This document shows, one piece after another, positions 11,350 through 56,232 of a stretch of DNA of 64,000 nt (the first letter of the stretch is position 1; every line of letters starts with the position of its first letter). The translations under genes were made by a program, and so were the position numbers. Below the pieces are notes generated by a model. It did not search any database and was not told the origin of the DNA. It was given only the letters and a program-made list of their open reading frames with translations. Origin of the DNA: Patellaria atrata CBS 101060 (taxonomy: Eukaryota); contig MU006089.1 in assembly GCA_010093705.1 (NCBI GenBank), positions 2,157,561-2,221,560 of the forward strand. The letters are read 5' to 3'.

Positions 11350-12901
11350 GTAAATTATTCAGCTCTTCGAGTATTCTATGTGTACTCTATGGAATTAGCC
11401 TAGCGCTATTCCTGCTTGAACTCCGCGGCTCGATGTCTTACCGTGCCTAACGGCTAGAAACTTCACCATCTGTCTAAGATCAGAATCTCTTTCTCGACAT
11501 ACGGATCAGATGAATTCCATATATCTTGATTCTACTGCAGTATACCAGCATCACCACCCACAATGCAAAACCGTACGATAACAACGAACGCACATAGCAA
11601 AAAAATTCTCGGAATCGAAAAATTCAAAACCAAAATAGAAGCACGATATCCAACGGCCGTTATCTCCGTTCCGTCAACAAAGATTTCAAAATTCTAGCTC
11701 TTTTCGTTATACTTCTTCATCTGTGTCCTCCTTTTTGGTTTTGTGGACGCAGTACTGCAACCCGGCCAGGGGCTCCGCTTCAAGTGCTGAATCGGATGCT
11801 ACATGTATTTGATTTTTTTTTTTTCGGGGGATCGTTGATTCCTGTTTATTATCTGTTCATCTCGGCTCAGTCGATATTTCATGAGCATGGCGAAGGCGTT
11901 TTTGGAAATTTTTCGAAAGGGGATATGGTGGTGAGAAGGAGGGAAGGTTAGATAGGTCTTATGCTTGAGCAGGATGGTGGATGTCCTTGTACGTACATAT
12001 ATTGAAATAAGTCCTTAACTTATCGGTTTGTGATCGCGTCTTTTAGCGATGTCGGCAAGTGGGAGTTGGGAACTTGTGTACTCGTCGCCACATCCCATAT
12101 ATTCTTACGCGCACAGATGCAAACGACTTGACCGAACACTTCCTGTACAGATCACCCGGCCGGTCCATCGGTTCCTGCACAACTCTTTCGCCCCGAAAAC
12201 GGAAAAAAGTTCCAGCAGTACTGTACCGTAGAGACACCTCATACAGCCAGGTGGACCCATTTCATCACTCGAACCATACAGTAGACAAGAGTCGTTCAGT
12301 CATTCGTCTCATATGGCTGATTCCGCTCGTGCAAAAGGACTCCGCTCATACAAAAACACTCCCCCTTTACAGAAGAGCTCCTAATACAGAATTTCACACC
12401 CATCGATCTCCTCCAGCTGCTGAGTCGGTTCATCCAATATGACATTTACCCTGGGGGGCTGTAGCGTAGTGTAGTGTGGCGTACAGTCCTCTTACCACTA
12501 TGCTGTTCGAGCTGCGTCTGGTCGTACTCACTACATCCATCTGCCTACCTTAGTCACGCAACACACAGCATCCTACTGCATTCCCTGGATAGCGCTTCTT
12601 CTCGTCATTTATCATCCGATCCCCTCCAAGCAATGAAATTTCCTTTACCGTGTCGGAGGATAGCTGACGTGTGGCTGCGGGAACGATCACGCTGTGCCAC
12701 CCGTATGCGACAGGATGCTATGTACCGTAGCGTGCAGATGCTAAAAGACCGCATACACGAATCAACCCAAATCATATCAACATTTTTACTCTTTTCATAC
12801 CAATGTCTTTTGTTGCGTCACAAGCTTTATTTCATATTCCTGGGGTTTGGAGTGTACTGTGCTATATGCAGGACACTAAATGGTAATAGATCACATTACA
12901 T

Positions 12902-13000
12902 TACGGTACATATCCCGAAACCGTAGATAGAGAAGGTAAAAAGTGTGCACTACGGTGCATATCCAGCGACCGTAGATAGAGAAGGCAAAAAAGCGTGCAG
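12902..13000. repeat. Two-copy tandem duplication, period about 49 bp
   Basis: tacggtacatatcccgaaaccgtagatagagaaggtaaaaagtgtgcac is followed by tacggtgcatatccagcgaccgtagatagagaaggcaaaaaagcgtgcag. Confidence 0.85.
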
Positions 13001-14095: not shown

Positions 14096-15248
14096 TACCA
14101 GACGTCGGCTTGGCTGATGTCGATAGGCTAAAGGAAGGATCGATAGCACGACCCGACTAACCCGCAAGGGCACACAAGAAAACAACCGAAGGTACGGAGT
14201 AATCTCCCTGGCCTTTGCCTTCCTTCAGCACCGGAGAAAAGATGCAGATAAATGTCGACTCGTGATAGAAAAGAGTTTCGAGCAAGCAATTGCTCACTAC
14301 CTTGGATATATATCCGAAATATCTCTCGTTACTCACCGGATATGCCCTCTGATGGTGGGAAGATCACTACTCCGTCTTCCCGCATTGCCAGCAAAACAGG
14401 AGCCACAGGGAACTGGTCCATGGCATTCCCGTGAACGGCAACTCATCACCGGAACAGTATGAGTGTTGTTAAAGGGGGCACAGGGAGGGCGTACGATGTT
14501 GAGTAGGTACGTTCATCTATCCAGTCATAAACCATCATCATGACTGGATTGCGAAAGATCTGCTTTCATGTGCGAACTATGAATGACATGGCATATGCAG
14601 GCAGAGTTGGAAGAATATCGTTGTCTTCGCGCGTGCTGCATCTCATGACGAGTAGGGGGAAATGCCTTAGCGATCTTTGACACACAAGCGGACAATGATC
14701 GGTATGGCGATATTCGTTATTTCGTTACAGCGCTTTGGGGAAGATGAAGCCTCACTTCTTATTGATGGACGGAGCGCTGTCGTTCTGTTGGCTCTGATTC
14801 CGTTGTCAGTTCTGTCTGCCGCTCATCCGAATTCCCCAGTACTCTCCACTACTACTGCCATTATTCTTATCCCCATCCTCTTCTTTCTGTTGCGTTGTCC
14901 CGCAACCCGCAGCTGTGCCACTCGGTACCATCGGTATTTGGACCGCATCTCAGTTTCTGGCTGCAGGATATCCACGTCGCGTTTGATATTTCAGAACTGG
15001 ATGCGTTTCGCAGTTTCAAAGAATCGTTTTCGCAACGAGCTTAGTCAGTGCTTTATGGTTGGTATGCACAGTAGTATAACTCAGTGCTCCTGTGTTGATG
15101 CCTGAGCTGAATTCAGGTATCAGAGAGCTGTACCTGTACTGTCCTTGTTCCTGATTGTATGGGGGATAGATGACTGCATGACTTACCGACGGTATGACCG
15201 TCGAGCTCAAGACTCAACTTCTGGAGACTCAAGTCCTATGGATAGGTA

Positions 15249-15362
15249 ACTCACTTTCCAGTCACTCACTTTCTAGTTACTCACTTTCTAGTCACTCACT
15301 TTCTAGTCACTCACTTTCTAGTCACTCACTTTCTGGTCACTCACTTTCTGGTCACTCACTTT
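15249..15362. repeat. 15-bp minisatellite, about 7.6 copies (actcactttctagtc)
   Basis: Directly visible near-perfect tandem array with variants ccag/ctag/ctgg. Confidence 0.95.
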
Positions 15363-15738
15363 GCCGAGTATCATTATTCGACCTTGGTACTACAAAAGTA
15401 GAGGTTTAAGGAGTCCTTATTGTAATCATACTAAGGTAGTTTGTCTATGTCTGATGATGCAAGACACAGCCCCGCTACCCCTCGAACAATTGCTCAGCCT
15501 TCTCGCTACCCACGCTCTACCAGCCATAAACTTCAATTCTAACCGTGATACCAAGTGGAACAAGCCACTATTTGTCGGTTTCCATGCCAGATAAAATCTT
15601 CATAAACCATTGAACTCTCTGCTTTACATTTCCTCTTTCGCATTCTGCGCATTCATCTCACCTTCCTCCTTCCCTAACCTGCTTACACCAAATCTACTTC
15701 AATCGCGGTCAGTCCGAACTCAGTCGCAGATCAACACC

Positions 15739-17302
15739 ATGTCTGGCTATTACCCGCCTCACGGTCAAGGGGGATATCCTCCATATCAAGGTGAGAAGAA
15801 TCTGCAAACGTTATGAAGGGTTTTCAGCTCGCTGACGCGCGCGCACTTATAAGGCCAACCTCCTCCTCAGGGACACTCACCATACCCACAGCAAGGTTAT
15901 CCTCCTCCACCTATGCAAAATCAACAGTACCCCCCGCCTCAGGGCTATCCCCAACAGCAGCAGCCGTATGGCGCACCTCCACCCGTAAGTTACGTTGTTA
16001 GACTACGCCATAACAAGTCTCAATCTGACATCGAATCGAACAGGGTCAATACGCACCACCTCCTGGCCAGTATCCTCCTCCCCAGCAGGGTTACGGTGGG
16101 CCTCCACCAGGCCAATATCCTCCTCAACAGCAGCAATATGGAGGTTCCCCATATCCTCCTCCTCCACAACAGGGATATGGTCCTCCCCAGGTGAGTCTTT
16201 TCCAAATTTCAGTACTCGGATCAAAAACTGATCGAACATATTAAAGGGCCAATACGGACCACCCCAGGGACAGTATCCACCACCACAACAGCCACCAATG
16301 CAGCAGCAGCAATGGGGTCCAGGCCCTCAGGGCAATCCGACTCCCCCATCTCCCGGATATGGTCCTCTTCCCCAGGTTCAAATCAACGTGATACCCCAAG
16401 TAGAGGGTCTCAGAAAAGCAATGAAAGGAATAGGTACAGATGAAGCAACCTTGATCAAGATACTTTCCCAGCAAGATCCTATCCAAATAGAACATATTAG
16501 AAAAACGTTCACGCAACGATTCGGGCGCGATCTTATCAGAGATATAATGAGCGAGACATCCGGCGATTTTGAGACTGGTCTCGTTGCACTAGCACGTGGT
16601 CCTCTCCTCGCGGATGCATACAACCTTAAGGATGCCATTAAGGGTGTGGGAACCAATGAAGCCCTCCTCAACGACGTTCTCCTGGGCCGCAGCAATGCCG
16701 ATATCCGCGCCATCAAACAAGCTTATCAGCAGGAGTTCCGCAGTTCTCTCGAAGCCGACGTACGTGGTGATCTCAGCATGAAAACCGAACAGCTATTCGC
16801 CATGGTCCTATCCGGCACCCGTCAAGAAGATTCCGTTCCCGTGAATCCAGGCCAGGTCGACGCTGATGTCGCTGAGGTCCACCGCGCGACGGACGGCAAG
16901 ATAGGAACGGACCAGGTCACCGTGTGCCAGATCTTCACGAACAGAAATGACAACCAGCTCCGCGCCATCTCGCACGCTTACGAAGCCAAATACAAGAAAC
17001 CCCTTGCACGTGTCATCAAGAACGAGTTTTCAGGCCACATGGAGGATGCGCTACTCCTGCAACTTGCCCGTGCAGTTGACAGGGCGAAGAGCGACGCAGA
17101 TCAGCTCGAGGATACGATGAAGGGCATGGGGACAAAGGAGAAGTTACTCGTCCAGAGACTCATAAGCATCCACTGGAACAAGCAGCGGATGCAGCAGGCC
17201 CGCGCTGCTTACAAGCATATCTACCACCAGGAGTTGCCCAGCAGGATCAGGGGTGAGACTAGAGGTGACTTCCAGAAGCTGCTGTTGGCTTGTTTGGAGT
17301 AG
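15739..17302 (+). CDS. Annexin with a G/Y/P/Q-rich N-terminal tail (annexin A7/A11-like architecture)
   Basis: Exons 15739-15790, 15854-15984, 16044-16190 and 16247-17302 splice in frame (MSGYYPPHGQGGYPPYQGQPPP...). Four annexin repeats: MKGIGTDE, IKGVGTNE, GKIGTDQ, MKGMGTKE, with ETSGDFE/EFSGHME/ETRGDFQ. Confidence 0.93.
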
Positions 17303-17730: not shown

Positions 17731-17935
17731 NNNNNNNNNNNNNNNNNNNNNNNNNNNNNNNNNNNNNNNNNNNNNNNNNNNNNNNNNNNNNNNNNNNNNN
17801 NNNNNNNNNNNNNNNNNNNNNNNNNNNNNNNNNNNNNNNNNNNNNNNNNNNNNNNNNNNNNNNNNNNNNNNNNNNNNNNNNNNNNNNNNNNNNNNNNNNN
17901 NNNNNNNNNNNNNNNNNNNNNNNNNNNNNNNNNNN
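17731..17935. other. Assembly gap (205 N)
   Basis: Run of n characters, preceded by an A-tract. Confidence 1.
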
Positions 17936-17942
17936 CAACAAC

Positions 17943-19607
17943 CTACCTCAACTTATGCCCCCCCACAACCAGTTTGCTAAAAACCCCACTCGGATCGAAC
18001 TTCCGCTGCGTCTTCACCAACTGCGCCTTGTTCGCGGCACCATAGCTATCAAACGGGTTCTGCGATATATCCGCGTAGTTGTGATACAGAAACTCGTCCC
18101 AGAGACCCCGCTGCTGCGCGAGCTTTTTGCCGAAGTTGATAACTTCGGCGCCGAGGGCGTTGAAGACGTTGTCGGAGGTGGGCGAGGACCAGGTGTAGCC
18201 GAGGTTGATTACTAGTGGGGTGGTTAGTGTGGGTTAAAGTATTGGGATGGGGGATGGGGATGGGTGTTATAGCCCGGGGAAAGCGACGTACTTATAAACG
18301 GGCCCTTCCTACTCCCCAGCCCCAACGAGTTCCCCCCATTCTTCGCCATCAGCGCTAACATGCTCTCGGTGATCGGCTGCATGGCCAGCGTAGCGAGGAA
18401 GCCCGGGTCGGAGCCGTCGAGGAAGGGCTGGCTCTTCTGCGCCCAGAAGTCCCAGATGTCGGTCGGGAGTCTAGCGTCGTTTTTGAAGACGAGGGTGAAG
18501 AAGTTCTGGCGGAGGCCGGAGAAGACGGGGGCGTTGAGCTCGGCGGCGAAATCGCCGTAGGTTCCGACACGCATCGTGTTGCCGATTTGGGTCTCGGCGG
18601 TGAAGTTGTCGAAGATGGGCGGGTTGGGCGTCGGGTCGAGGTATTCGTAGTCGTTTGCGAAGATGATGCCGCCGAGGGAGGGGACGCCGACGGAGGCGAT
18701 GATGACGCCGGCTTTGTTGTCTTTGGGCGCGTTCTTGTTGAACCAGTAGAGCGCTTCGTAGAGTTTGTCTTTGCTCGTGGGCAGGTTTTGGATCATGCCG
18801 CCCCACATGTTGCCCTCGGGGTGGGTTTCCATGTCGAAGCGGGTTACGATGCCGAAGTTGTTGCCGCCTCCGCGGAGGGCTCTGAATAGGTCGGGGTTTG
18901 AGGAGGCGCTCGCCGTGACGATGTCACCGGAGCCGAGCACGATCTCGTAGGACTTGACGTTGTCGCAGGCCCAGCCGTACTTATTGGAGGTGAAGGATAT
19001 GCCTCCGCCGAGGATGAAGCCACCAGCTCCGATGTTGCTGAGACGACCGCCCGTAACGCCTAAGCCTTTGGGATTCAAGTAGGCATACACTTCTCCCCAA
19101 AGAGCTCCAGCACCGATCTGCACGATCTTATTGCCGTTGGTTAGGGAGAGTGAGTCCAAATCCTTGAGATCGATGGTTAGGCCGTCCTGGATGTTAGAAG
19201 CACCCTTAATTGGCATATGACCTCCTGACTTGACCGCGAAGAAGCAATTTGCCTTTCTTGCGGCAATTACGGCTACGGAGACCTCTTTGGCCGATTTTGG
19301 CTTGAATCTACATTTCGGTTGTAATTGAATGTTTTGCTGGGGCCATGCGATTTGATCAGTTGCATAGGCTGCGTCCGTTTGGTACAATGTTTTGGATGGG
19401 TATAAGACCTCGAGAGCAGCACACTTTTCGTATTGAATTAGTGAATGTGCTCTGTACATTTAGATCAGAAATACGTACAACAATGGCACATTGCTGAACA
19501 CCTCTCTTACTCAAATCTCCATACTCGCCGACCTCTACCGACGTCTCAATCGGTGAAGCGCGGGAAAGGATGGAAAAGGAGAGGATGAGAAGATTTCGGA
19601 AATGCAT
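17943..19607 (-). CDS. Secreted FAD-linked oxidoreductase (VAO/BBE-like, FAD-binding PCMH type)
   Basis: Signal peptide MHFRNLLILSFSILSRASP and a KR pro-peptide site. Motifs VKSGGH (His typical of covalent FAD attachment), GAGGFILGGG, YGWACDNV, LRGGGNNFGIVT and C-terminal YHNYAD...KFDPSGVF. Introns 19478-19424 and 18291-18212; stop TAG at 17945-17943. Confidence 0.9.
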
Positions 19608-21454
19608 GATTGAACTGAATACAGATCAAAGCATGTAGAAACAGCAGAATAAGAGGACCGGAACGAGAGACGGATGGATGAAGAAGAGGTTGAGTAAATT
19701 ACACCACAAGAAATTGGTGATCCAATTGCCTTGATGAAACCAAAGAAATTGTGGACGATCGACATGATTATATACGCTTTTGCTCCAAAGGAAAGTGGTG
19801 AAAGAACAATGACAGAGATGGAAAGTGTGGAACCGGGATACTAACAAAGAGCACGCGGCTCACGCAGAACGCCACAAGGCCTTACCGTGTCTGCAACTCC
19901 CACATGGTCAAGCTTACATACATGGAGATGAGCTGGGTTCATTTATCGATCTTGGTAGCACTGTGTGACAGGCAAAACGTGGATGTAAAGCATTCCAAAG
20001 TTGCGTATATCCTGAACCACCAACATCGACCAAGTCTCTGGTAGGTCCTGATCGAGGACAAGCGGCATAAGGAGCCGCACTAAGTCAAAGCATGAATTGT
20101 TTAGGCATGTTACTGCACAACTGAACGCTTGTGCTCTGCTTCGCGAGCTGAGATACACGCGACGAAGGAGGGATAGGGTATTGGGTTTTGCAAGACCATC
20201 CATGGCCGTAGGCCGCATCAGATCCCGATATTTCCATTAGAGGATCTAAGTGCGAGATCTAGACAACGATATCATGCATTTGAGCATGCGATTCCCCTGT
20301 TCTACAGGTGAGTGAGGACGATGGAGGTGTATAGGGTGTCAAGGGGAATCTGGTTTAAACTCTTCCTTTCAACTGTAAGCGGTTAGGACCGGAGATATTC
20401 TGGTACCGACTTTCGTGTTCATTAGCTGCACGTGATGCCAAGAGAAGCTATCCTCAACTTCATTCCATCTCATCTATTGTAACAACCTTCACTCCTTCAG
20501 CCTTAACCTCATGCTTGTATTGATTAACCACACGTCCCCAACTCCATTAGATATTACGTAGGATGTCTAGCATCGGTCAGTCATTATCTGCTAGACCTAG
20601 TGTACATAATAGCGCAACGCCTTCTTCTATGCGCTGCATATAAGAAGGATCAGACAGTATCAGCCGTCCCTTGAGACCATTTTCGGAGCCTTATTCCCCA
20701 CGCTTTTCCTGCGACGAGCTCCTTCGGGAAATCTTCTGGAAGACTTAGACGAGTTCCATGCTTCTGCCTCTTATGGTTTTGGCCCCAATTTCGCTTATTC
20801 AGTTCCACTACATGGACATGGTTGTTGTAGCTTTCTGAACTCGACCTTCTAGATATGGGCTTCGATGAGTGCCACATTCGTACCCATTATGTATTCAAGC
20901 GTGGGTTTAATATAGATCCCTGCCTGTAATATCGATAGGGCATCTTCATTCTTTGGTAAACCACTACAGATTGCCAATGCTACCAAATTTCTATATCATG
21001 CAAGCTGCACTACAGAATTCCGTTCTCTTTTTCTATCTGATAACCAGTTGAAATACTAATTCTATTACTCTACAAATCCCAAAGAACACTAGTTTTGGAC
21101 GAACGCCATATTTCCGTGCTAAACTCGCCGTTCTTCATTCTATTCAGCCTGCTAACTAGCTTCCGCACATAGAGTCCCCAAGTTCCATACTACTGGGTTC
21201 AGATTATAGTCAATTTTATACCTGTTCTATTTAAAGCATAAAATGGAGCTCAGCTCAAAAATCTTATATCTCTGACCTCATTGAAACGATAATGTGAACG
21301 ATAACTGCACATAATTCTGAGTTATTCGACCATGATACTCTAAAAAAAGAGAACTATACCCTAAGCAACCACATACAACCAAATAAATCCTAAAAGAGAA
21401 AAAACTATGTCTTAAAAAAAGGACAACTTAGTCCCGAGTTCGAAAAAGTAAAAT

Positions 21455-21606
21455 AAAAAATTGCAAAAAGCAGTTCCCCCGCCGAAGCGGAGTACATATG
21501 CCCTCCCCTCGAGGGGAGCCGGCCGGTATCGAACCCGGGCCGCCGAGATATATTATATAAAGGATGGGAGATACGCACCGGCCTAATCGGCTAACCCGGA
21601 TTCGAT
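21455..21606 (-). ncRNA. tRNA-like Pol III-type structured RNA candidate or tRNA-derived element (not a canonical tRNA)
   Basis: A-box-like TAGCCGATTAGG (21593-21582), B-box GGTTCGATACC (21535-21525), hairpins CTCCCC-TCGA-GGGGAG and CTCCGC-TTCG-GCGGGG, then T5 and T6 runs. The T-stem and acceptor stem do not pair canonically. Confidence 0.55.
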
Positions 21607-23263
21607 GGAAATATGAGCGGTTGACGTTGCTTATGACCTGCAAACGTCTGAGCACGTGGTTTGCATGTTCAAACATTCTCCCAGCGGTTTTTCTTAAACC
21701 ATCAAATGCATTCTGGTAACTCACCCTTGGAGTTCAATGTTCACGATGGACCTTTCTACTCCCGATTTCTCTCAAGTTTTCAGTGGGGAGATGACAGGTG
21801 TACCATAGTAGTCCCTTTCTGTTTTTTTCGAATTATATCCCCTCTTTTAAACTTTAAGGATGACAATGGTAAGTAATAGCTTTCATTTCAAAATATCCCA
21901 AATAAAGATATATCTAGCAAGCATATTCACCAAAAATGAACTACACACGATAAGAGCAGTCAAATAGATAAGAGCAAGTGAAAGAAGACAAAGGGGAGTT
22001 CATTACGAGAGAGAATCTCCCTTCCCCACCTCTAGTCCATCTCCTCCGTGATTCCCAAGTACTCTATATCCACACCACCATACCACTTCCCCAAAAAAGA
22101 AGCATGCAGCCAAATCGATACACAACCAGAATTCGCTCAGTAGTGCTACAAAGACCTCAAACGGTCCTCACCACGTCGACCAGCAGCACGAGCCCGCCGG
22201 ACAGATCCCCATCTGATCTCGTCCCGCATCTTACGGTATGTCGGCTACGGCCTAGTCTCGTAGCAGTGCGTTGAGCTCGGGTCTCGGGACGGGAGCGCAG
22301 GTGTTGGTGGCTTGGGGTGTTATACACAACCTCAGACTGATAATTCAACGTTCGAGTTTGGGGTTTGCTCTGTCTGTATTAGGTTATGATATTGCTTTGT
22401 CGATTTTGAGGTTGAGACTTTGATGGCATATTGTTTACTTCAGCACCTTCATGCTGCTTATATTACCGATAGCACGAATGAGCTTGACGGGAGTGGGAAT
22501 TCTGTACGCATATCGGGATGTGATACTTTATCCCTCTCACGGTTGAAGAGTACGGTACCACTCAACTTCTACGGCATGATTGATAGTAAATGAAAATGTG
22601 AACCTTATACGAGCTCACATACCAAATCAGCAACCACACTCTCCCGTTAATCTATGCTCATATCTAGTATATATTGATAAATCGTTTCATAGTGTATCAA
22701 CTAATAGTGAATCCATCGCCGCGGACGCTAACAAGCTTCCAACACTTCGCTCCAACAGTCCAAAGCAAAGCCTATGACTCGGCAGGATCCAACACTCGAT
22801 TCCGGTCACCCCGTCCATCAGTGCATTGTTACCTACAGTAATATTTGCGGGAAGGACCGTCTGGTCGGGACCGAAGACCCGGTTTAGAGATTTGGTAATA
22901 TCTCTCTCCCCTTCGTTGTGGGTAATCTAGACATAACTCACCGTTTGAGATACGACACGATCAATTCAATCTTAGACAGAGAACACAGGTAGGATAACAG
23001 TATCAATGGCTATCGCTAAGCTAAAATTCTAAATCCAGCCCAAAAAGTGGAGAGTGGTATAATACTAAAACACGAGCGCCTCCCAGAAGCAATGAAGCCA
23101 TATATATACAGTTACTCCCCGCGATGAATGCTAAAAGCCTCTATCACCATATTACACTGTTCCAAAAAAGAGAAGCTCTCCCCTGTAAATACTATTACAG
23201 TTCATCCAATCGTCACTTCGTTACTAATACAAATCCAGACAAACCTATGAGTGCAGACGGTAA

Positions 23264-24961
23264 TCAAGCCGCATAAGCTGGCGGCGGGCCATCCACATCC
23301 TCACTCGGTAGCCAAAACCCATCCGAGCCAGCTTCTCCCATCTTCTCCTCCCTGACCTTCCGCGCGATCTCGTTCGCCATCTTCATCATCCAGGCCTGCT
23401 CTAAGATGCCACCGGATGACGAAGACGAGGACTCAGCGTACGGAGGAACAGGCTTAGCATGCGAGAGTTTCTCGAGCGAGTAGTTGCGCAGAAGAGGGAG
23501 CGTGCTGGTAGAATGAGCATTGCGAGCATGACGATGGAGCGGCATTTTTGACTCCAGGTCTGACAATAGCGCATTATGGAGGGCATTACTGGCATTGATG
23601 GCAGCATTGGTGCTCTCTGCTCTATCGTGACGTTGCCTTTCCTCTGTCTTAGGCGTATCTAGATCATCAATGCTGACTTGTCTGCTGTGGAAACGAACAG
23701 CTTTATTTGGAGATCGGGGTGGGGTGGTGAGTTCCCCTTCTTTCTCCTCAGGGATAGAGGAAGGTGGTTCAAAAGAACCGGCAACGCTTGGAGCGGGTGT
23801 TGATGCTTCAGTAGAGACGCTTTCTGTTCCGTCTTCCTTATTTTTCCGGAGATCAACTACCCGTTTCTTTCGCTGCCTTGGAGGGTGAGCTCGCGGTCTA
23901 CTTCCACTAAGGCCATGGTAAGAGGAACTACGGCCTATAAAGCTCGGACGAGACGACGATGTGCCGGTATCCGAATTGTCAGACACACTATGTGCCGACG
24001 AGTTCGTTGCAAGGGAAGAATGATGACGGGAGAGTGTGGATGATGTGAGTTGAGGTGTGCCTGCTGCGGATTCTGGGCGATCGATGCCGCCTGCCCAAGC
24101 TCGGAAGACAGTATCGCGGAGAGATGGAGTAAACAAGGAAAGAGTCCGTTGCGACTCTTTGAGAGTAGCTAGACGAAGTAGGTTCTTTTGAGAAAACGAA
24201 GCATGGGTTTCCGTGGGAGAATCTAGACTCAACGAGGATAACTCAGACTCGTCGATTGGATTTCCAAATGCATCAACTGGATCTTGAGCAGGACTCGCTA
24301 GTGGGTCTATAGGGACCGTAGCGTCCTTGTTCGTATTCAATACTCTTTCATCATCCATTTCCGTATATTCTGGCGACCACAGACGTAGGGATAATCGGTG
24401 TAGAATCGCAGGAAGGTCATCCATGAATAGTACTCGTAGCTGCCCCTCTATCTCTTTCTGTAGATAGTCTCTTACGAATGGTATCGAGTCAAACGTCGAT
24501 GACACTTTTAGAGACTCTAATGGATCGTTTCGAAACACCAAAGTTAAGCCTTTTGTCTTGCAGAATACCAGTATAACAAATCCAGAAAGTCTGAAGTCAG
24601 AAAGTGTGATTTGTAAAGGTATCGTAAGCCCGGACGATGCTGCGAGAGGTTGCGGAGACGCGAAGGACGGTTTCGTGGAAAGATAGGTATTAAGAGGGTT
24701 TGCTTGTACTCTTGTCTTCAGCGTTAGAAAAGCATCTCCAGTATATGCCATCTTGAAGATGCCTCGAAACTTGTCTTCGGCCAAATCTCCGATCTCCAAT
24801 ATTTCCAGTTCTGGCGGTACAGAGCCCAAATTGAGCTCAGTGACGATGATGTCGTCAACGATGATGGGAGGCTTTGGAGATTTGTTCAAAGCTGTTGTTA
24901 GCATGTCTCTAGCACGAGACGTATCCGCTATTAGCGGCGACCAGTTGAAGTTGAAAGCCAT
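23264..24961 (-). CDS. MDM34: ERMES subunit, mitochondrial distribution and morphology protein 34
   Basis: Diagnostic N-terminus MAFNFNWSPL; SMP domain with PPELEILEIGDL, VQANPL and VFRNDPLESLKVSSTFDSIP; C-terminal PPPAY motif. Single exon. Confidence 0.95.
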   Translation of the reverse strand: MAFNFNWSPLIADTSRARDMLTTALNKSPKPPIIVDDIIVTELNLGSVPPELEILEIGDLAEDKFRGIFKMAYTGDAFLTLKTRVQANPLNTYLSTKPSFASPQPLAASSGLTIPLQITLSDFRLSGFVILVFCKTKGLTLVFRNDPLESLKVSSTFDSIPFVRDYLQKEIEGQLRVLFMDDLPAILHRLSLRLWSPEYTEMDDERVLNTNKDATVPIDPLASPAQDPVDAFGNPIDESELSSLSLDSPTETHASFSQKNLLRLATLKESQRTLSLFTPSLRDTVFRAWAGGIDRPESAAGTPQLTSSTLSRHHSSLATNSSAHSVSDNSDTGTSSSRPSFIGRSSSYHGLSGSRPRAHPPRQRKKRVVDLRKNKEDGTESVSTEASTPAPSVAGSFEPPSSIPEEKEGELTTPPRSPNKAVRFHSRQVSIDDLDTPKTEERQRHDRAESTNAAINASNALHNALLSDLESKMPLHRHARNAHSTSTLPLLRNYSLEKLSHAKPVPPYAESSSSSSGGILEQAWMMKMANEIARKVREEKMGEAGSDGFWLPSEDVDGPPPAYAA

Positions 24962-27777: not shown

Positions 27778-30310
27778 GTTGGCTGGAGTCGCGGCGTCCT
27801 TTCTTGAATGCCTCTCGAACCGTTACGGGTAACAATTCGAAAGGAAGACAAGAAAGAACTTCTTGGCTCCTTACGGTGAGAAAGATCTCAAAAGATGGGT
27901 AAAGGAAGAAGCGACGTGGTAGCCAGCTTCGAAGGTATTTAAAGCTCTGAAGAGCAGTGGGGAAACGATTGAAACGTGATGAGGTGCAATTGGCGGAGTT
28001 TGTGATGATGAAGAGTGAGATGTAGCACGAAGAAGGAGAGTGGAGGAGAGGTAAAAGAAATGGGCGCGAGAGGGGAGCAAGAGGTTGACTGGGAGATGGC
28101 TGGGGGGTGGTCGGAGAAAGCTCTCAGCTTAGAGCGGCTTTTTGTTGTGCAGTGATCCGCGACGTTAGCGCGTAAACAACTCAAGCTTGGCCGGCCAAAT
28201 CGAGCTAAATTACTCCTTTTCATTCCCCCTGGCGCCTCATGAATATCAATCACATGCATTTGCTTCAAATCTCATCACTCGAAGGCCACCAAAATCATCA
28301 ATTGTACCTTCTCAAGAATTGTATCTTCAAAATTCAGACTCCAGCATCGAGGTGATATCCTTCGAGAAGATGGTTTCGCAATTATGCCCGATTCCCAAGC
28401 CTTCAATTGCTGATTGCTCAGTTCATTGCGTTACGCAAACCTCACAGGTTTCGAACCCGCCATTTCCTTGTAGAGTATCCACTGCATAACTCGTGGTGCC
28501 TGGCCATTGGATAGTATGGACCTCGGATAGTATATCACCGCGTCTTTGATGCAAACAATCGATAGTGATGCAGAAGAGTGAGATTTCGTTGGAAGCTTTC
28601 AGCTGAGTTTGTCGTGAGACCCGCAGCTTATCCCCAGCCTCCTTTTTATGGTCGCGACGGTCATTGGATACGGTTTAGGCTGGAGTTGCTGCACCGTAAC
28701 GCCTTTCTGCACGTTCTGCATAATTGGCCGTCCACGGGTAGTATGAATCTGTTAGGCCCGAGCGAACCATATTCGCCAGCTTCACCTCATACGCTACCGT
28801 GGACCGATCGCAATATAATTCTCGGCTCTGCCGAATTACCGTCGAGGATACTATCGAATTATTTAGCTCCAAATATAGACGTAAGAGATCTCGAACAGCG
28901 AAAGGACGTTCAGACTTCAGAGTAACATGATTAGAGAGTTGTCTCACCTGTTCAACTACGCGTTCTCTTTTACTTCCAGTAATCAGTCTATTTTGGAGTA
29001 CATATCTTACTGGATATTCCAATGGCACTCTCTTCTCATATACTTCACGTATACCTCCTTAGGAGGACGACGTGACGTTGATTTAAAGTATCCTTCTCAC
29101 GTCTTAGGAGGCACGCAAGGCTCCTTCCCGTACGGAAGAATTTCTCTACTCATGGAATGCACTGTCTAGATTCGGTCAGCTCCTACCCAAGGTACATACT
29201 GCTATCGAATTCTCTTTAGTCTTTCGGGTACCAGTCATGGCTTCATTAATTTATCAACCCATCTTCCATTATTCAAATCTATAGGAAACCTCTGTTTGCT
29301 TAGCAACCATACACGAAGAAACCACATACGGACATAAGGTAGTACTTCTTTTAAATACATGCATCTTGGGAGCTGTATTCTTTAACCTAAAGTGTTCTAT
29401 TCCTCTTACCACTGATTCCAGCGCATAGCTCGAGTAACGTAATACTTCTCGGTCTCTTTCTAGTGTGTTTCTTTTCTTGTCGGACGTTGACAAGATTCAT
29501 GTCCCAAGCACATATTGACCTTGAGATGCTCATTTACCTCTTACTGGGGATCGGTGTCATGAAGAACGTTAGAAACATCAGTCATTTTTAGGTTGCCAGA
29601 TCTAATTCTATGTAGATATTGGATAAAACGGTTACAATGATCCATCTCACTAACACCTGTGTTTCAAAGCATCCATTGCATACGCAAAATCAATAGTATA
29701 CCTATGTTATAGGGGCAGCCTATGAGTCCGCAACAATAAGAGATGCATATCACTGAGCATTCTAGGATACCTTGGGTTATGGTATCTTTAGAATTGGTCT
29801 AACTGATCAATTCCTATTTTACGGTAGTTTTGTTTGGTACTCTCTTCCAGGTTGTACTACGGTCTGAATACCCTATCACATATGTACTGGTCTCTTCCAG
29901 GTTAGAAACGGGTACTTTCCTCTATGTTAGCAGGTAATGTCAGCCAGTTGTATAGTGCCGTACAATTGGAGAAAGTCACGAGTGATATGCAGCAAGACAA
30001 GGATAGCCTGCATGCATTAGGATGTTATGCTTTGTTACGTGGCGATCCCGTCTACTATGTCACGTCGTTGTAAAGCGCTAGGAGAATTATTTTTTTTTTA
30101 ATTCATGACTCTTAGGTTCGCCGCATCGTGCGGACTTTCCCAAAGCGTTTGTCCGTTTATCTTATTTACAGTACCTGCGGCTCCCCATGACATAAAGCTA
30201 CAGTAGTCATCACTTCAAACCAAATCACAATAGCACACACAGTCTTTTCCTCTCCGACAATTCTTTTCCACACAGGAATCCTTTGAAGTTCTACAGTCAA
30301 TTCATCCGCC

Positions 30311-54040: not shown

Positions 54041-56232
54041 CTATGCGGAATTTGAAGGTCCCGCAATGACCTCGGCGTCGCCATCGGTCATTGGGGTATC
54101 GATGGCGCTGGCGGCTAGGATGGAGTATTGGCCGCCAGCGCCGGCCCAAATGACATGGCGATCTTTGATCGCCGTATTGGCGATTTGCGTCGCCACTTCG
54201 ATATCATCGTCGGTTCCCTGCCCTGTCTGGTAGTTGGCAGAGAACCCCCAAGAATAAACCTTTCCGGTCTTAGTTACACATATGGTATGGTCGGGACCAC
54301 ATGTGACATATTGGGCATCGTTGATGCCTGGGACCTCTGTAGGGACCTTGAGGATTTTTGGACGAGTCTGATTCTCGTCCGCGTACTGCAGGTCGTTGTG
54401 ATGTTGCGCAGTCAGGTCAGCAATACGGATACCCATTTGGTACCCGTCGACACGGCCCCATATGAGGAGCTTTCCATCATTCGTGACTGCTGCGGAGTGG
54501 TGCGCACCACCACAGATCTGCTTGATCCCTTTGCCTGACAGAGCTGGTACTTTCGTTGGGGTCTCAACGATTGCATTGGCTTCACCAACGGTTTGTGACG
54601 TGATGCCAGTTTCGCCCCAAGAATTGTTGCCCCAGGCCCAAACATTGTCCTTGTTGTCGATACCGAATGAATGATAGTCGCCACTTCCGATAGCAAGGAC
54701 ACCCTTCTTTGGGAGATTGACCGGATGCGGGTCGAGACCGGTTTCTTTTGTACGCTCAACCATGCGGCGACCAAGTTGGTTTTGTTGGCCAGATCCCCAA
54801 GCAAAGACCGAGCCGTTCTTGTCAAGTGCAAGTGCATGATTGGCACCGCAGGCGACCTGCTTGATGTTCTTCAGGCCTGGGACTAGCTTGGGTTCGAGCT
54901 GAACAAGTTTGCCCTTGTGGAGGTCCTCCTTGGAGAATCCGAAAATGCCTTCATTTGTCTATTGATTTTGTTAGTTTTAACATGTAAATCATGTGAATTA
55001 AAAAGCAACTTACCCTGAAGGTGCCCCATCCGTACACATTGCCCTCATCGGTGACACCAAATGTTGTACTATCGCCTGCAGCGACTGATGAGAATCTGGG
55101 ATTATCAGGGAAACACTCCGGTGGGATGGGAGTAGGGTTGGCCTCTAAAGGATTCATTCCAGAATCGCTTCCAGAATCCGAGCTAGAGCTATCGTCGTCC
55201 TGGTTCTCGTTTATCTCTTTCAACCCTCCATCCCAAGCAGTATTCCGTCCAAGTGCTCCCTGGTCATTCACTCCCCAAGTCAGAATCTGGTTATCATGGG
55301 TTAAAGCCGCACAGTGCATTCCACCGGCAGCGACTTGGACAACACCTGCTTTTGAAGCCGAAAGACTGGGATTGAAACGTGGACGTTTGACATCCACTGC
55401 ATTCTTGGCCGTTCCAAGACCAAGTTCACCATTGCTACCTTCACCGAATACGAAGTAGTCGAAGCGTCCTTCCGGAAGTTCGTTGATCTTTGGCAAAGCC
55501 TTCTTTGGCTTAACCGGAGCTTTCTTACGGGGCTTAGACTCCTTGGGGGCTTTCGTAGCCTTGGCTGGTTTTGGAGCAACAGATGGTTGCTTGACTGTCT
55601 TAGCACGCTTTGACTTTGGCTGCTCATCATCACTCTCGTCCTCAGATGCAGGGTTTGGACGTTTAGCCGCTTTCTTCGGTTTGACGTCCTTCTTCTTGGG
55701 TGCAACTGGCTCCTTCGAGGTCGGTGCAGTCGCCTTTTCGGTCCCAGTAACCTTAACTTTTGCTGGTGCTTTGGCGGGCTCGGCTGGAGGAGCCGCTTTC
55801 TTGCGTGGCTCTCTCTTCGACGCAGCGGTCTCTGTGGCGGCGACCTTTGTGGCTGCGGCTCTCTTTGGACGAGCAGGTACTTTCTCAGTATCTTTATCAA
55901 TATTAGTATGTTCTTAAGCAAAGCAATGGAGGTTAGAGAACAAACTTACCGGCTTTGGCTTTACCCTTGCCTTTGGGTGCAGACTTTGCTGGTGCTTCTT
56001 CCGTATCACTGGCACCAGTCATCTCTTCGTCATCGCTAATATGCTCTTGGACATCGGTGTTATTAACGTCTTCATTGGAAGCGTCATTGTCAGAAGTATA
56101 GGCCTTTGCTGCGCCTTTAGCTGCACCTTTCCTCGGTGCTGCCTTCTTCTTGGTGACTTTGGCTTGCGTATTTGCGCGTAATGGCGACTTATCTTTAGTA
56201 GCAGCCGCTTTGGTGCGCTTTTCTCTCGCCAT
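54041..56232 (-). CDS. RCC1: Ran guanine nucleotide exchange factor RCC1 (Srm1/Prp20/Pim1 family)
   Basis: K/A/D-rich N-terminal tail; RCC1 repeats VFGEGSNGELGLG, AAGGMHC, TWGVNDQGALGR, VYGWGTFR, ICGGAHHS, YSWGFSANYQTGQG. Introns near 55950-55892 and 55013-54950. Confidence 0.93.

Follow-up and report, generated by a model that had tools for sequence, protein, structure and literature searches.

To our knowledge, the route by which a tRNA gene becomes a promoter cassette is documented in yeasts by RPR1, SNR52 and RUF70 and has hardly been charted elsewhere. In yeast RPR1, a tRNA-like promoter lies within the first 84 nt, and the sequences upstream of snR52, RPR1 and ZOD1 are described as carrying regular A and B elements that are not arrangeable as a tRNA-like structure (PMC2566860). 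The same report describes 13 tRNA-Trp genes in Yarrowia lipolytica, each followed by a ~70-nt RNA, RUF70, which ends at a T-tract and whose function is given there as unknown (PMC2566860). The tRNA-related elements described in Aspergillus fumigatus are 140–493 bp long, present in low or single copy and without a cloverleaf, and five of eight are reported to be transcribed (PMC5063351). In Neurospora crassa, milR-4 is described as being released from a tRNA precursor by RNase Z (PMC3547838).

The element compared here with these systems lies on the minus strand of the window, as we call the whole 64-kb stretch of DNA that was analysed. Since this DNA comes from the nucleus of an ascomycete fungus, it is reasonable to consider the element in terms of Pol III. 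The GC content of the window is 0.43–0.53, and its long, uninterrupted reading frames include an annexin, eIF5A, a RIO1 kinase, an FAD-binding oxidase and an Mdm34-like protein. In the RIO1 search, 8000 candidates were scored, 7082 of them with E ≤ 0.001, and 120 matches were listed; among those listed, the named matches are filamentous ascomycetes and the non-self matches are 54–63% identical. Because the best named RIO1 matches among those listed are no closer than this, the small-RNA repertoire of the organism is probably unexplored.

The element sits in a 3.8-kb gap (19460–23263) between the Mdm34-like and FAD-binding genes, in agreement with an earlier note that had placed it in an intergenic region; the host is a eukaryote, a fungus. 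There is no start-codon frame of 100 aa in this gap. Of its 43 stop-to-stop frames with a length of 45 aa or more, 14 were scanned, namely the longest ones and the frame 21428–21733 that spans the element, and none of these 14 matched a Pfam family; the closest start codons are ~2 kb from the element. The gap is a gene-free stretch amid an otherwise compact region, and may have room for an unannotated non-coding transcript. Telomerase RNA was considered for 19.4–23.3 kb and rejected, as no 8-mer of the CCCTAA repeat occurs there; the four matches in the window lie elsewhere. Every string quoted in the earlier note is found on the minus strand at the positions below, where the parts of the element and the two flanking genes are given in minus-strand order.

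23264-24961, minus strand: Mdm34-like gene
21607..21614, minus strand: putative Pol III start zone, placed by spacing ~18–20 bp upstream of the A box
21595..21606, minus strand: M1, ATCGAATCCGGG, 5′ arm of a long stem; inverted repeat I2 (12 nt, 92% complementary)
21600-21564, minus strand: tRNA-like 5′ half, TCCGGGT-TA-GCCG-ATTAGGC-CGGT-G-CGTAT-CTCCCAT
21582..21593, minus strand: A-box match, TAGCCGATTAGG, tRNA positions 8–19 in register (pattern match)
21582-21576 with 21527-21521, minus strand: GGCCGGT/ACCGGCC pairing
21564..21575, minus strand: anticodon-arm-like CGTAT and loop CTCCCAT, with T at 33, CCC at 34–36 and A at 37
21547..21563, minus strand: AT-rich insert with a TATA string, TATATAATATAT, forming the loop of the long stem
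21528..21546, minus strand: 3′ arm of the long stem, TCGGC-G-GCCCGGGTTCGAT
21539-21528, minus strand: M2, CCCGGGTTCGAT, within that arm; an inverted repeat that pairs with M1 as the 12-nt core of the long stem
21525..21535, minus strand: B box, GGTTCGATACC, exact match to GGTTCGANNCC (motif scan)
21503..21518, minus strand: hairpin 1, CTCCCC-TCGA-GGGGAG, a perfect palindrome
21502-21493, minus strand: linker between the hairpins
21456..21497, minus strand: 42-nt stretch present twice in the nuclear genome, comprising part of the linker, hairpin 2, T5 and five letters of T6
21477..21492, minus strand: hairpin 2, CTCCGC-TTCG-GCGGGG, with a UUCG loop; listed on the minus strand, not on the plus strand
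21455..21469, minus strand: first putative terminators, T5 at 21469-21465 and T6 at 21460-21455
21447-21443, minus strand: back-up T5
21443-21433, minus strand: M3, TCGAACTCGGG, behind the terminators; inverted repeat I3 (11 nt, 91% complementary to M2)
21435-21420, minus strand: weak hairpin, a terminator-like site
21420-21414, minus strand: T7 run
18224-19459, minus strand: FAD-binding gene

We read the element as a low-copy tRNA-derived Pol III type-2 unit of the leader type that no longer encodes a tRNA, with a probability of roughly 45%. The candidate is modest and unproven, and its transcription is predicted. We favor this reading because of the layout, the tRNA register, the terminators, the strand-specific pairing, the second copy, the fold of the 5′ part and the precedents. 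Against it count the failure to match any tRNA model, the broken stems, an ordinary whole fold, hairpins at chance level, the lack of a TATA element at −30, head 31-mers that are not repeated, the CGG/CCG density and the lack of a relative in the collections searched. If transcribed, the element would be one more tRNA gene recycled as a promoter cassette for an unrelated small RNA.

In such a unit, TFIIIC would bind the A box (21593-21582) and the exact B box (21535-21525), TFIIIB would be placed upstream of ~21610, and Pol III would start near 21614-21606 and stop in the T5/T6 runs at 21469-21455, giving a primary RNA of ~140–160 nt. Yeast tRNA genes keep a spacing of ~18–20 bp between start and A box; there is no clear TATA-like element at −30 in the sequence. 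The 5′ ~80 nt would fold into one long imperfect stem, M1:M2 plus GCCGA/UCGGC, closed by an AU-rich loop, while the last ~50 nt would form either two 6-bp GC hairpins or one ~15-bp hairpin, and the leader would be removed. Only hairpin 2 and the terminator are kept letter for letter in a second locus, which suggests that the head would serve as a promoter leader and that the 3′ module may be the part that matters.

The likeness to RPR1, SNR52, ZOD1 and RUF70, as these are described, lies in A and B boxes that stand in a 5′ part outside the functional product, followed by a short, structured, promoterless RNA and then by a T-tract tens of nucleotides downstream (PMC2566860). As in the description of RPR1, snR52 and ZOD1, the boxed 5′ part of the element cannot be drawn as a tRNA (PMC2566860). 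Unlike these genes and RUF70 in the same description, the element has a predicted downstream RNA of only ~50–60 nt, and unlike the leader-type yeast genes described there, its 3′ module lacks C/D and H/ACA boxes and does not resemble RNase P RNA. RUF70 is described behind a functional tRNA-Trp and in 13 copies, whereas the element has a non-tRNA head and two copies of its 3′ module. The comparison with RUF70 covers its published description.

The evidence for a Pol III unit begins with the order of its parts. With the A-box and B-box consensus sequences, the two strands were searched for sites that combine an A-box pattern, a B box with at most one mismatch 25–84 nt later, and a run of at least four Ts within 200 nt. 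The scan returned exactly one site in the 64 kb, the element, and its B box is exact. The exact layout was found in none of 200 local-composition block shuffles, in which the mean was 0.165 sites with one B-box mismatch allowed. On this count the earlier proposal of a Pol III RNA on the minus strand is supported: a type-2 layout (A box, exact B box, T-runs) is present and unmatched in the shuffles. The two boxes lie in the order and at the spacing of a type-2 unit (58 nt start to start), with oligo-T on the same strand, the T5 following 55 nt after the B box. As in a leader-type unit, the boxes fall within 21593-21525, the 3′ module at 21520-21470 contains no box match, and the T-runs begin at 21469. 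Taken by itself, an exact B box is found at two places in the window, where 0.43 would be expected, and of these two only the copy in the element is accompanied by an A box and T-runs. The T5, T6, T5 and T7 runs at 21469-21414 are the only cluster on the minus strand of the 64 kb with at least three runs of five or more Ts within 60 nt; the plus strand has one such cluster, beside an assembly gap. The second exact B box, GGTTCGAAACC at 28447-28457 on the minus strand, has an AGTGG string ~26 nt upstream but lacks both an A-box pattern and the T-run layout; it does not resemble the element and may be another tRNA-like scrap.

The head of the element can be laid out in the register of a tRNA. 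Counting by eye from T8 at 21593, the consensus letters A14, G18, G19, T33, CCC at 34–36 and A37 are in place, as are G53, T54, T55, C56, G57, A58 and C61 in the 3′ part. For this register to hold, the 37/38 intron position must accommodate 12 nt and the variable loop 8 nt. The canonical A-to-B spacing in tRNA genes is 44 nt, and the observed spacing is the canonical one plus 14, which agrees with the register count. The AT-rich insert (21547..21563) is where a tRNA intron would lie, and M1 overlaps the acceptor-like TCCGGGT (21600-21594). By eye, a weak anticodon stem can be drawn between CGTAT and ATATC 12 nt on, with three Watson-Crick pairs, one G.T and one C-C; ARAGORN at default settings missed this anticodon-like arm. 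A canonical nuclear tRNA-Gly(CCC) gene with an intron is among the closest known systems, and the element resembles it in having positions 8–37 and 52–62 in register, CCC at 34–36 and 12 extra nt at the intron site. It differs from tRNA-Gly(CCC) in its 8-nt variable loop, in matching neither ARAGORN nor Rfam, in a T-stem with three of five positions paired, and in having no 3′ acceptor strand for TCCGGGT after the T-arm. The last two features, both judged by eye, agree with the earlier description of a broken T-stem and acceptor stem. We regard the register as good evidence of descent from a tRNA gene. The element is no longer a tRNA gene.

ARAGORN found no tRNA gene in the 64 kb, whether introns were allowed or not, and at an 80% threshold it returned only two overlapping, implausible models. 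The whole window gave no match to Rfam 15 at gathering score. When 451 nt and 186 nt were searched with permissive filters, there was no match at E ≤ 10 to the tRNA model RF00005 or to 5S, U6, SRP, RNase P/MRP, vault or Y RNA. What did appear in Rfam at E ≤ 10 were models of unrelated prokaryotic sRNAs, matched at the level of a hairpin only; the highest score among them was 19.1 bits, where the threshold is 46. These results bear out the earlier note, which had not recognized the element as 5S, U6, SRP, RNase P/MRP or a canonical tRNA, and the check it had suggested, for an ordinary intron-containing tRNA or a known Rfam family, found neither with ARAGORN and Rfam. The label ‘tRNA-headed’ holds for the register and the box motifs; it does not hold for the covariance model, which gave no match at E ≤ 10, or for the folded RNA, in which the D-stem has a probability of 0.

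Several other identities were tried and rejected. For a circularly permuted tRNA, taking M1 as T-loop and 3′ strand of the T-stem leaves no complementary 5′ acceptor (by eye). For a tRNA split by an insertion, M2 and M3 would have to be joined, but the T-stem then contains a G-G mismatch and four of seven acceptor pairs form (by eye). An H/ACA or C/D snoRNA was rejected on the lack of an ANANNA hinge, an ACA tail and C or D boxes (by eye), and a weak snoR97 match falls outside the element. A U6 identity would depend on an 11-nt plus-strand likeness to a stretch of U6, and there is no Rfam match. Among other sequences, the 22-mer of hairpin 2 had no match in metagenome contigs, none in viral contigs and a single one among prokaryote genomes, which lies in Streptomyces between unrelated flanks. 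A 19-mer containing the B box was found at 24 metagenome-contig loci, all in GC-rich contigs with unrelated flanks, in which ARAGORN found no tRNAs. Two 15-mers, looked for as text strings, occurred in none of the papers searched.

The fold of the RNA was judged in parts. The 152 nt as a whole fold no better than shuffled sequences (z −1.61, with 13 of 200 as good). The 80-nt 5′ domain ranks with the stabler local folds in the window, with a minimum free energy of −31.6 kcal/mol, a GC-corrected z of −3.0 and a raw rank of 85 among 15910 windows. Two competing pairings had been pointed out, a ~19-bp stem of 21606-21587 with 21546-21528 and the pairing GGCCGGT/ACCGGCC; both are present, and folding of the 152 nt gives the long stem as the structure of minimum free energy. 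If the RNA begins at 21606 or further upstream, M1:M2 together with GCCGA/UCGGC forms the long stem at a probability of 0.98–0.99, and the tRNA D-stem is at 0. With a start at 21600, the long stem falls to 0.21 and GGCCGGU/ACCGGCC climbs to 0.6. The pairing M2:M3 has a probability of 0.0, even in a read-through RNA. Hairpin 2 (one G.U) and both pairings of M2 contain G.U pairs and can therefore pair on the minus strand only, which argues weakly for a minus-sense RNA.

The double hairpin fared less well. Both hairpins are present as had been described, but they are statistically ordinary and compete with one longer hairpin: their sequences are similar, and they can pair together as one hairpin of ~15 bp. 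Depending on the RNA ends assumed, the pairing probability is 0.02–0.51 for hairpin 1 and 0.02–0.50 for hairpin 2. The window contains 23 GC-rich 6-bp tetraloop hairpins against 24.4 expected. Adjacent pairs of them number 2 against 0.13 expected, and at least one pair was seen in 24 of 200 resamples. The most stable GC-corrected local folds of the window are elsewhere, within or next to the frame 54041-54763: at 54065-54180 (both strands) and 53690 (minus strand), z reaches as low as −5.1.

Sequencing reads allowed the copy number to be estimated. They come from one study, as two runs (X1 and X2) of one sample, both of which behave as DNA; the sample may be the source of the assembly that contains the window. 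In both runs the 42-nt stretch forms a contig of its own, with a depth of 658 (X1) and 696 (X2), while the contigs that flank it have depths of 312–322 and 432–451. A contig of 1153 nt at single-copy depth (413) joins at 21456 and then diverges from the sequence of the window. With the flanks at full depth and the second flank at single-copy depth, the stretch has a second nuclear locus. An allelic bubble was rejected, as the flanking contigs are at full and not half depth, and so was a mitochondrial insert (NUMT), as the contig of the second copy is at nuclear single-copy depth. One contig runs unbroken from 21468 to beyond 31000, so that no 31-mer of the tRNA-like head recurs: in the assembled reads only the 3′ 42 nt are doubled. 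The depths of the listed contigs sum to the bin means without any contig for the upstream side of the second copy. No other copy lies within the 64-kb window.

The shared 42 nt stop within the T6 run, at the point where termination by Pol III would be expected. Beyond it, the 30 nt seen of the flank of the second copy are ~60% alike to the flank in the window, with gaps, as aligned by eye in T-rich DNA. If this alignment is real, the two loci would be old paralogues at the level of DNA that have preserved 42 letters out of 42; because the DNA there is T-rich, we give the alignment little weight.

A high-copy SINE, one of the possibilities raised earlier, is excluded for this genome, since the head is at single-copy depth and only the 42-nt 3′ piece is at about twofold depth. 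The only flanking direct repeat is M1/M3, with nine of 11 letters alike by eye, and M1 is itself part of the predicted transcript; at its 3′ end the element is T-rich, not A-rich. A MITE or LTR context was rejected, since neither terminal repeats nor target duplications nor long repeats were seen near the site, and so was a Helitron 3′ end, as no CTRR follows the hairpin (by eye).

The rival that survives best, though we consider it unlikely, is that the element is a dead relic, either a decayed tRNA pseudogene or an old retroposed or duplicated Pol III element, in which the boxes survive by chance or recency although transcription and use have ceased. The T-stem and acceptor stem are broken and no tRNA match was found; about two copies of the 42-nt piece exist, no relative turned up in the collections searched, and the whole fold is not significant. 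Low-copy tRNA-related relics of similar size are described in Aspergillus fumigatus, where three of eight are reported as inactive (PMC5063351). These, named AfuSINE2 (140–493 bp), share with the element an ascomycete host, a similar size and a very low or single copy number, and, as described, a tRNA-related A/B-box head without a cloverleaf and a 3′ extension unrelated to tRNA before an oligo-T (PMC5063351). AfuSINE2 copies are described with target-site duplications of 4–14 bp and degenerate boxes, whereas the element has an exact B box (PMC5063351). Set against that description, it also has no convincing duplication, its M1/M3 repeat being partly inside the predicted transcript and M1 pairing with M2, and no A-rich or LINE-like tail is seen. 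What a relic would not lead one to expect is that the B box should still be exact over all 11 nt, with a good A box and an exceptional cluster of terminators likewise intact, nor that 42 of 42 letters should be identical while the next 30 nt are ~60% alike (by eye), a pattern that points to constraint or recent conversion. Were it a relic all the same, the element would be an ordinary tRNA-derived fossil, and a warning that exact A and B boxes together with hairpins do not make a gene.

Base composition bears on a second rival, in which the element acts at the level of DNA, there is no RNA gene and the resemblance to A and B boxes is coincidental. GC is 0.60 at 21477-21606, and the adjoining 100 nt have 0.28 in the 3′ direction and 0.44 in the 5′ direction, so the earlier picture of a GC-rich island in AT-rich DNA is right for the 3′ side and wrong for the 5′ side, which is at about the average of the window. 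CGG and CCG together occur 16 times in 130 nt, or 12.3 per 100 nt against 2.5 for the window; this is the maximum of the window, and the count is reached in 1 of 6387 windows. Such a density also fits a DNA-level reading, which we hold to be slightly less likely than the relic. It could take one of two forms, CGG/CCG palindromes around a TATA as zinc-cluster factor sites or as a Pol II promoter/UAS, or a small foldback or MITE-like repeat. The perfect TATATAA string in the middle of the element suits the first form, and the three copies of the motif TCGAAYYCGGG, two direct and one inverted, also favor action on DNA, as does hairpin 1, a perfect DNA palindrome. An unannotated transcript may start here, since the 3.8-kb gap is without recognized coding sequence, but no target gene lies at a normal promoter distance, the next start codons being ~2 kb off. 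Nor would DNA palindromes require the G.U-type mismatches that make the pairing strand-specific; the strand- and order-specific layout was not met in 200 shuffles, and there are no terminal inverted repeats with a target-site duplication (flanks judged by eye).

Returning to the leader-type Pol III unit, a stronger form of it would be a functional, lineage-specific Pol III RNA family of two members, in which a tRNA-derived leader is removed and the product, a C(UUCG)G hairpin with a U-tail of ~50–60 nt in all, is kept identical in both loci by selection. We regard this form as improbable. If true, it would give Yarrowia RUF70 a counterpart in an ascomycete lineage that has been little sampled, and the second copy may then have a different leader, perhaps a real tRNA.

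The weakest rival, a Pol III-driven precursor of milRNA-like small RNAs from which a tRNA-like head is cut off and a hairpin diced, has a fungal precedent in milR-4 and shares with it and with the tRNA-miRNA genes of murine gammaherpesvirus 68, as described, a promoter in a tRNA-like 5′ part followed by hairpins and an oligo-T in the same order (PMC3547838), and the 19-bp 5′ stem and the possible ~15-bp hairpin of the 3′ module also speak for it, yet it is very improbable here, as the heads described in those genes are real or foldable tRNAs cut by RNase Z, with hairpins of Dicer length (PMC3547838), whereas the element has no cloverleaf, a head that does not fold as a tRNA, so that recognition by tRNase Z is doubtful, named hairpins of only 6 bp or an alternative ~15-bp hairpin of the 3′ module, and, where such precursors have a foldable tRNA moiety and a stem of at least ~20 bp, a 5′ stem of 19 bp with bulges.

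Other repeats were seen in the window away from the element. At 15231-15377, ~0.9 kb upstream of the annexin frame, there is a tandem array of a 15-nt unit (GTCACTCACTTTCTA-like), detected as seven overlapping 57-nt copies; the read contigs break here too, at ~2–3× depth. The N run at 17731-17935 is an assembly gap, on either side of which the read contigs end in poly-A or poly-C homopolymers. Short repeats rich in Pro, Gln, Gly and Tyr (family D2) occupy 16069-16367, where they cover the 5′ end of the annexin frame and the sequence shortly before it; low-complexity N-termini are common in annexins. Two direct repeats of 44 nt, 86% alike and 49 nt apart from start to start, lie in the intergenic stretch 12899-12991.
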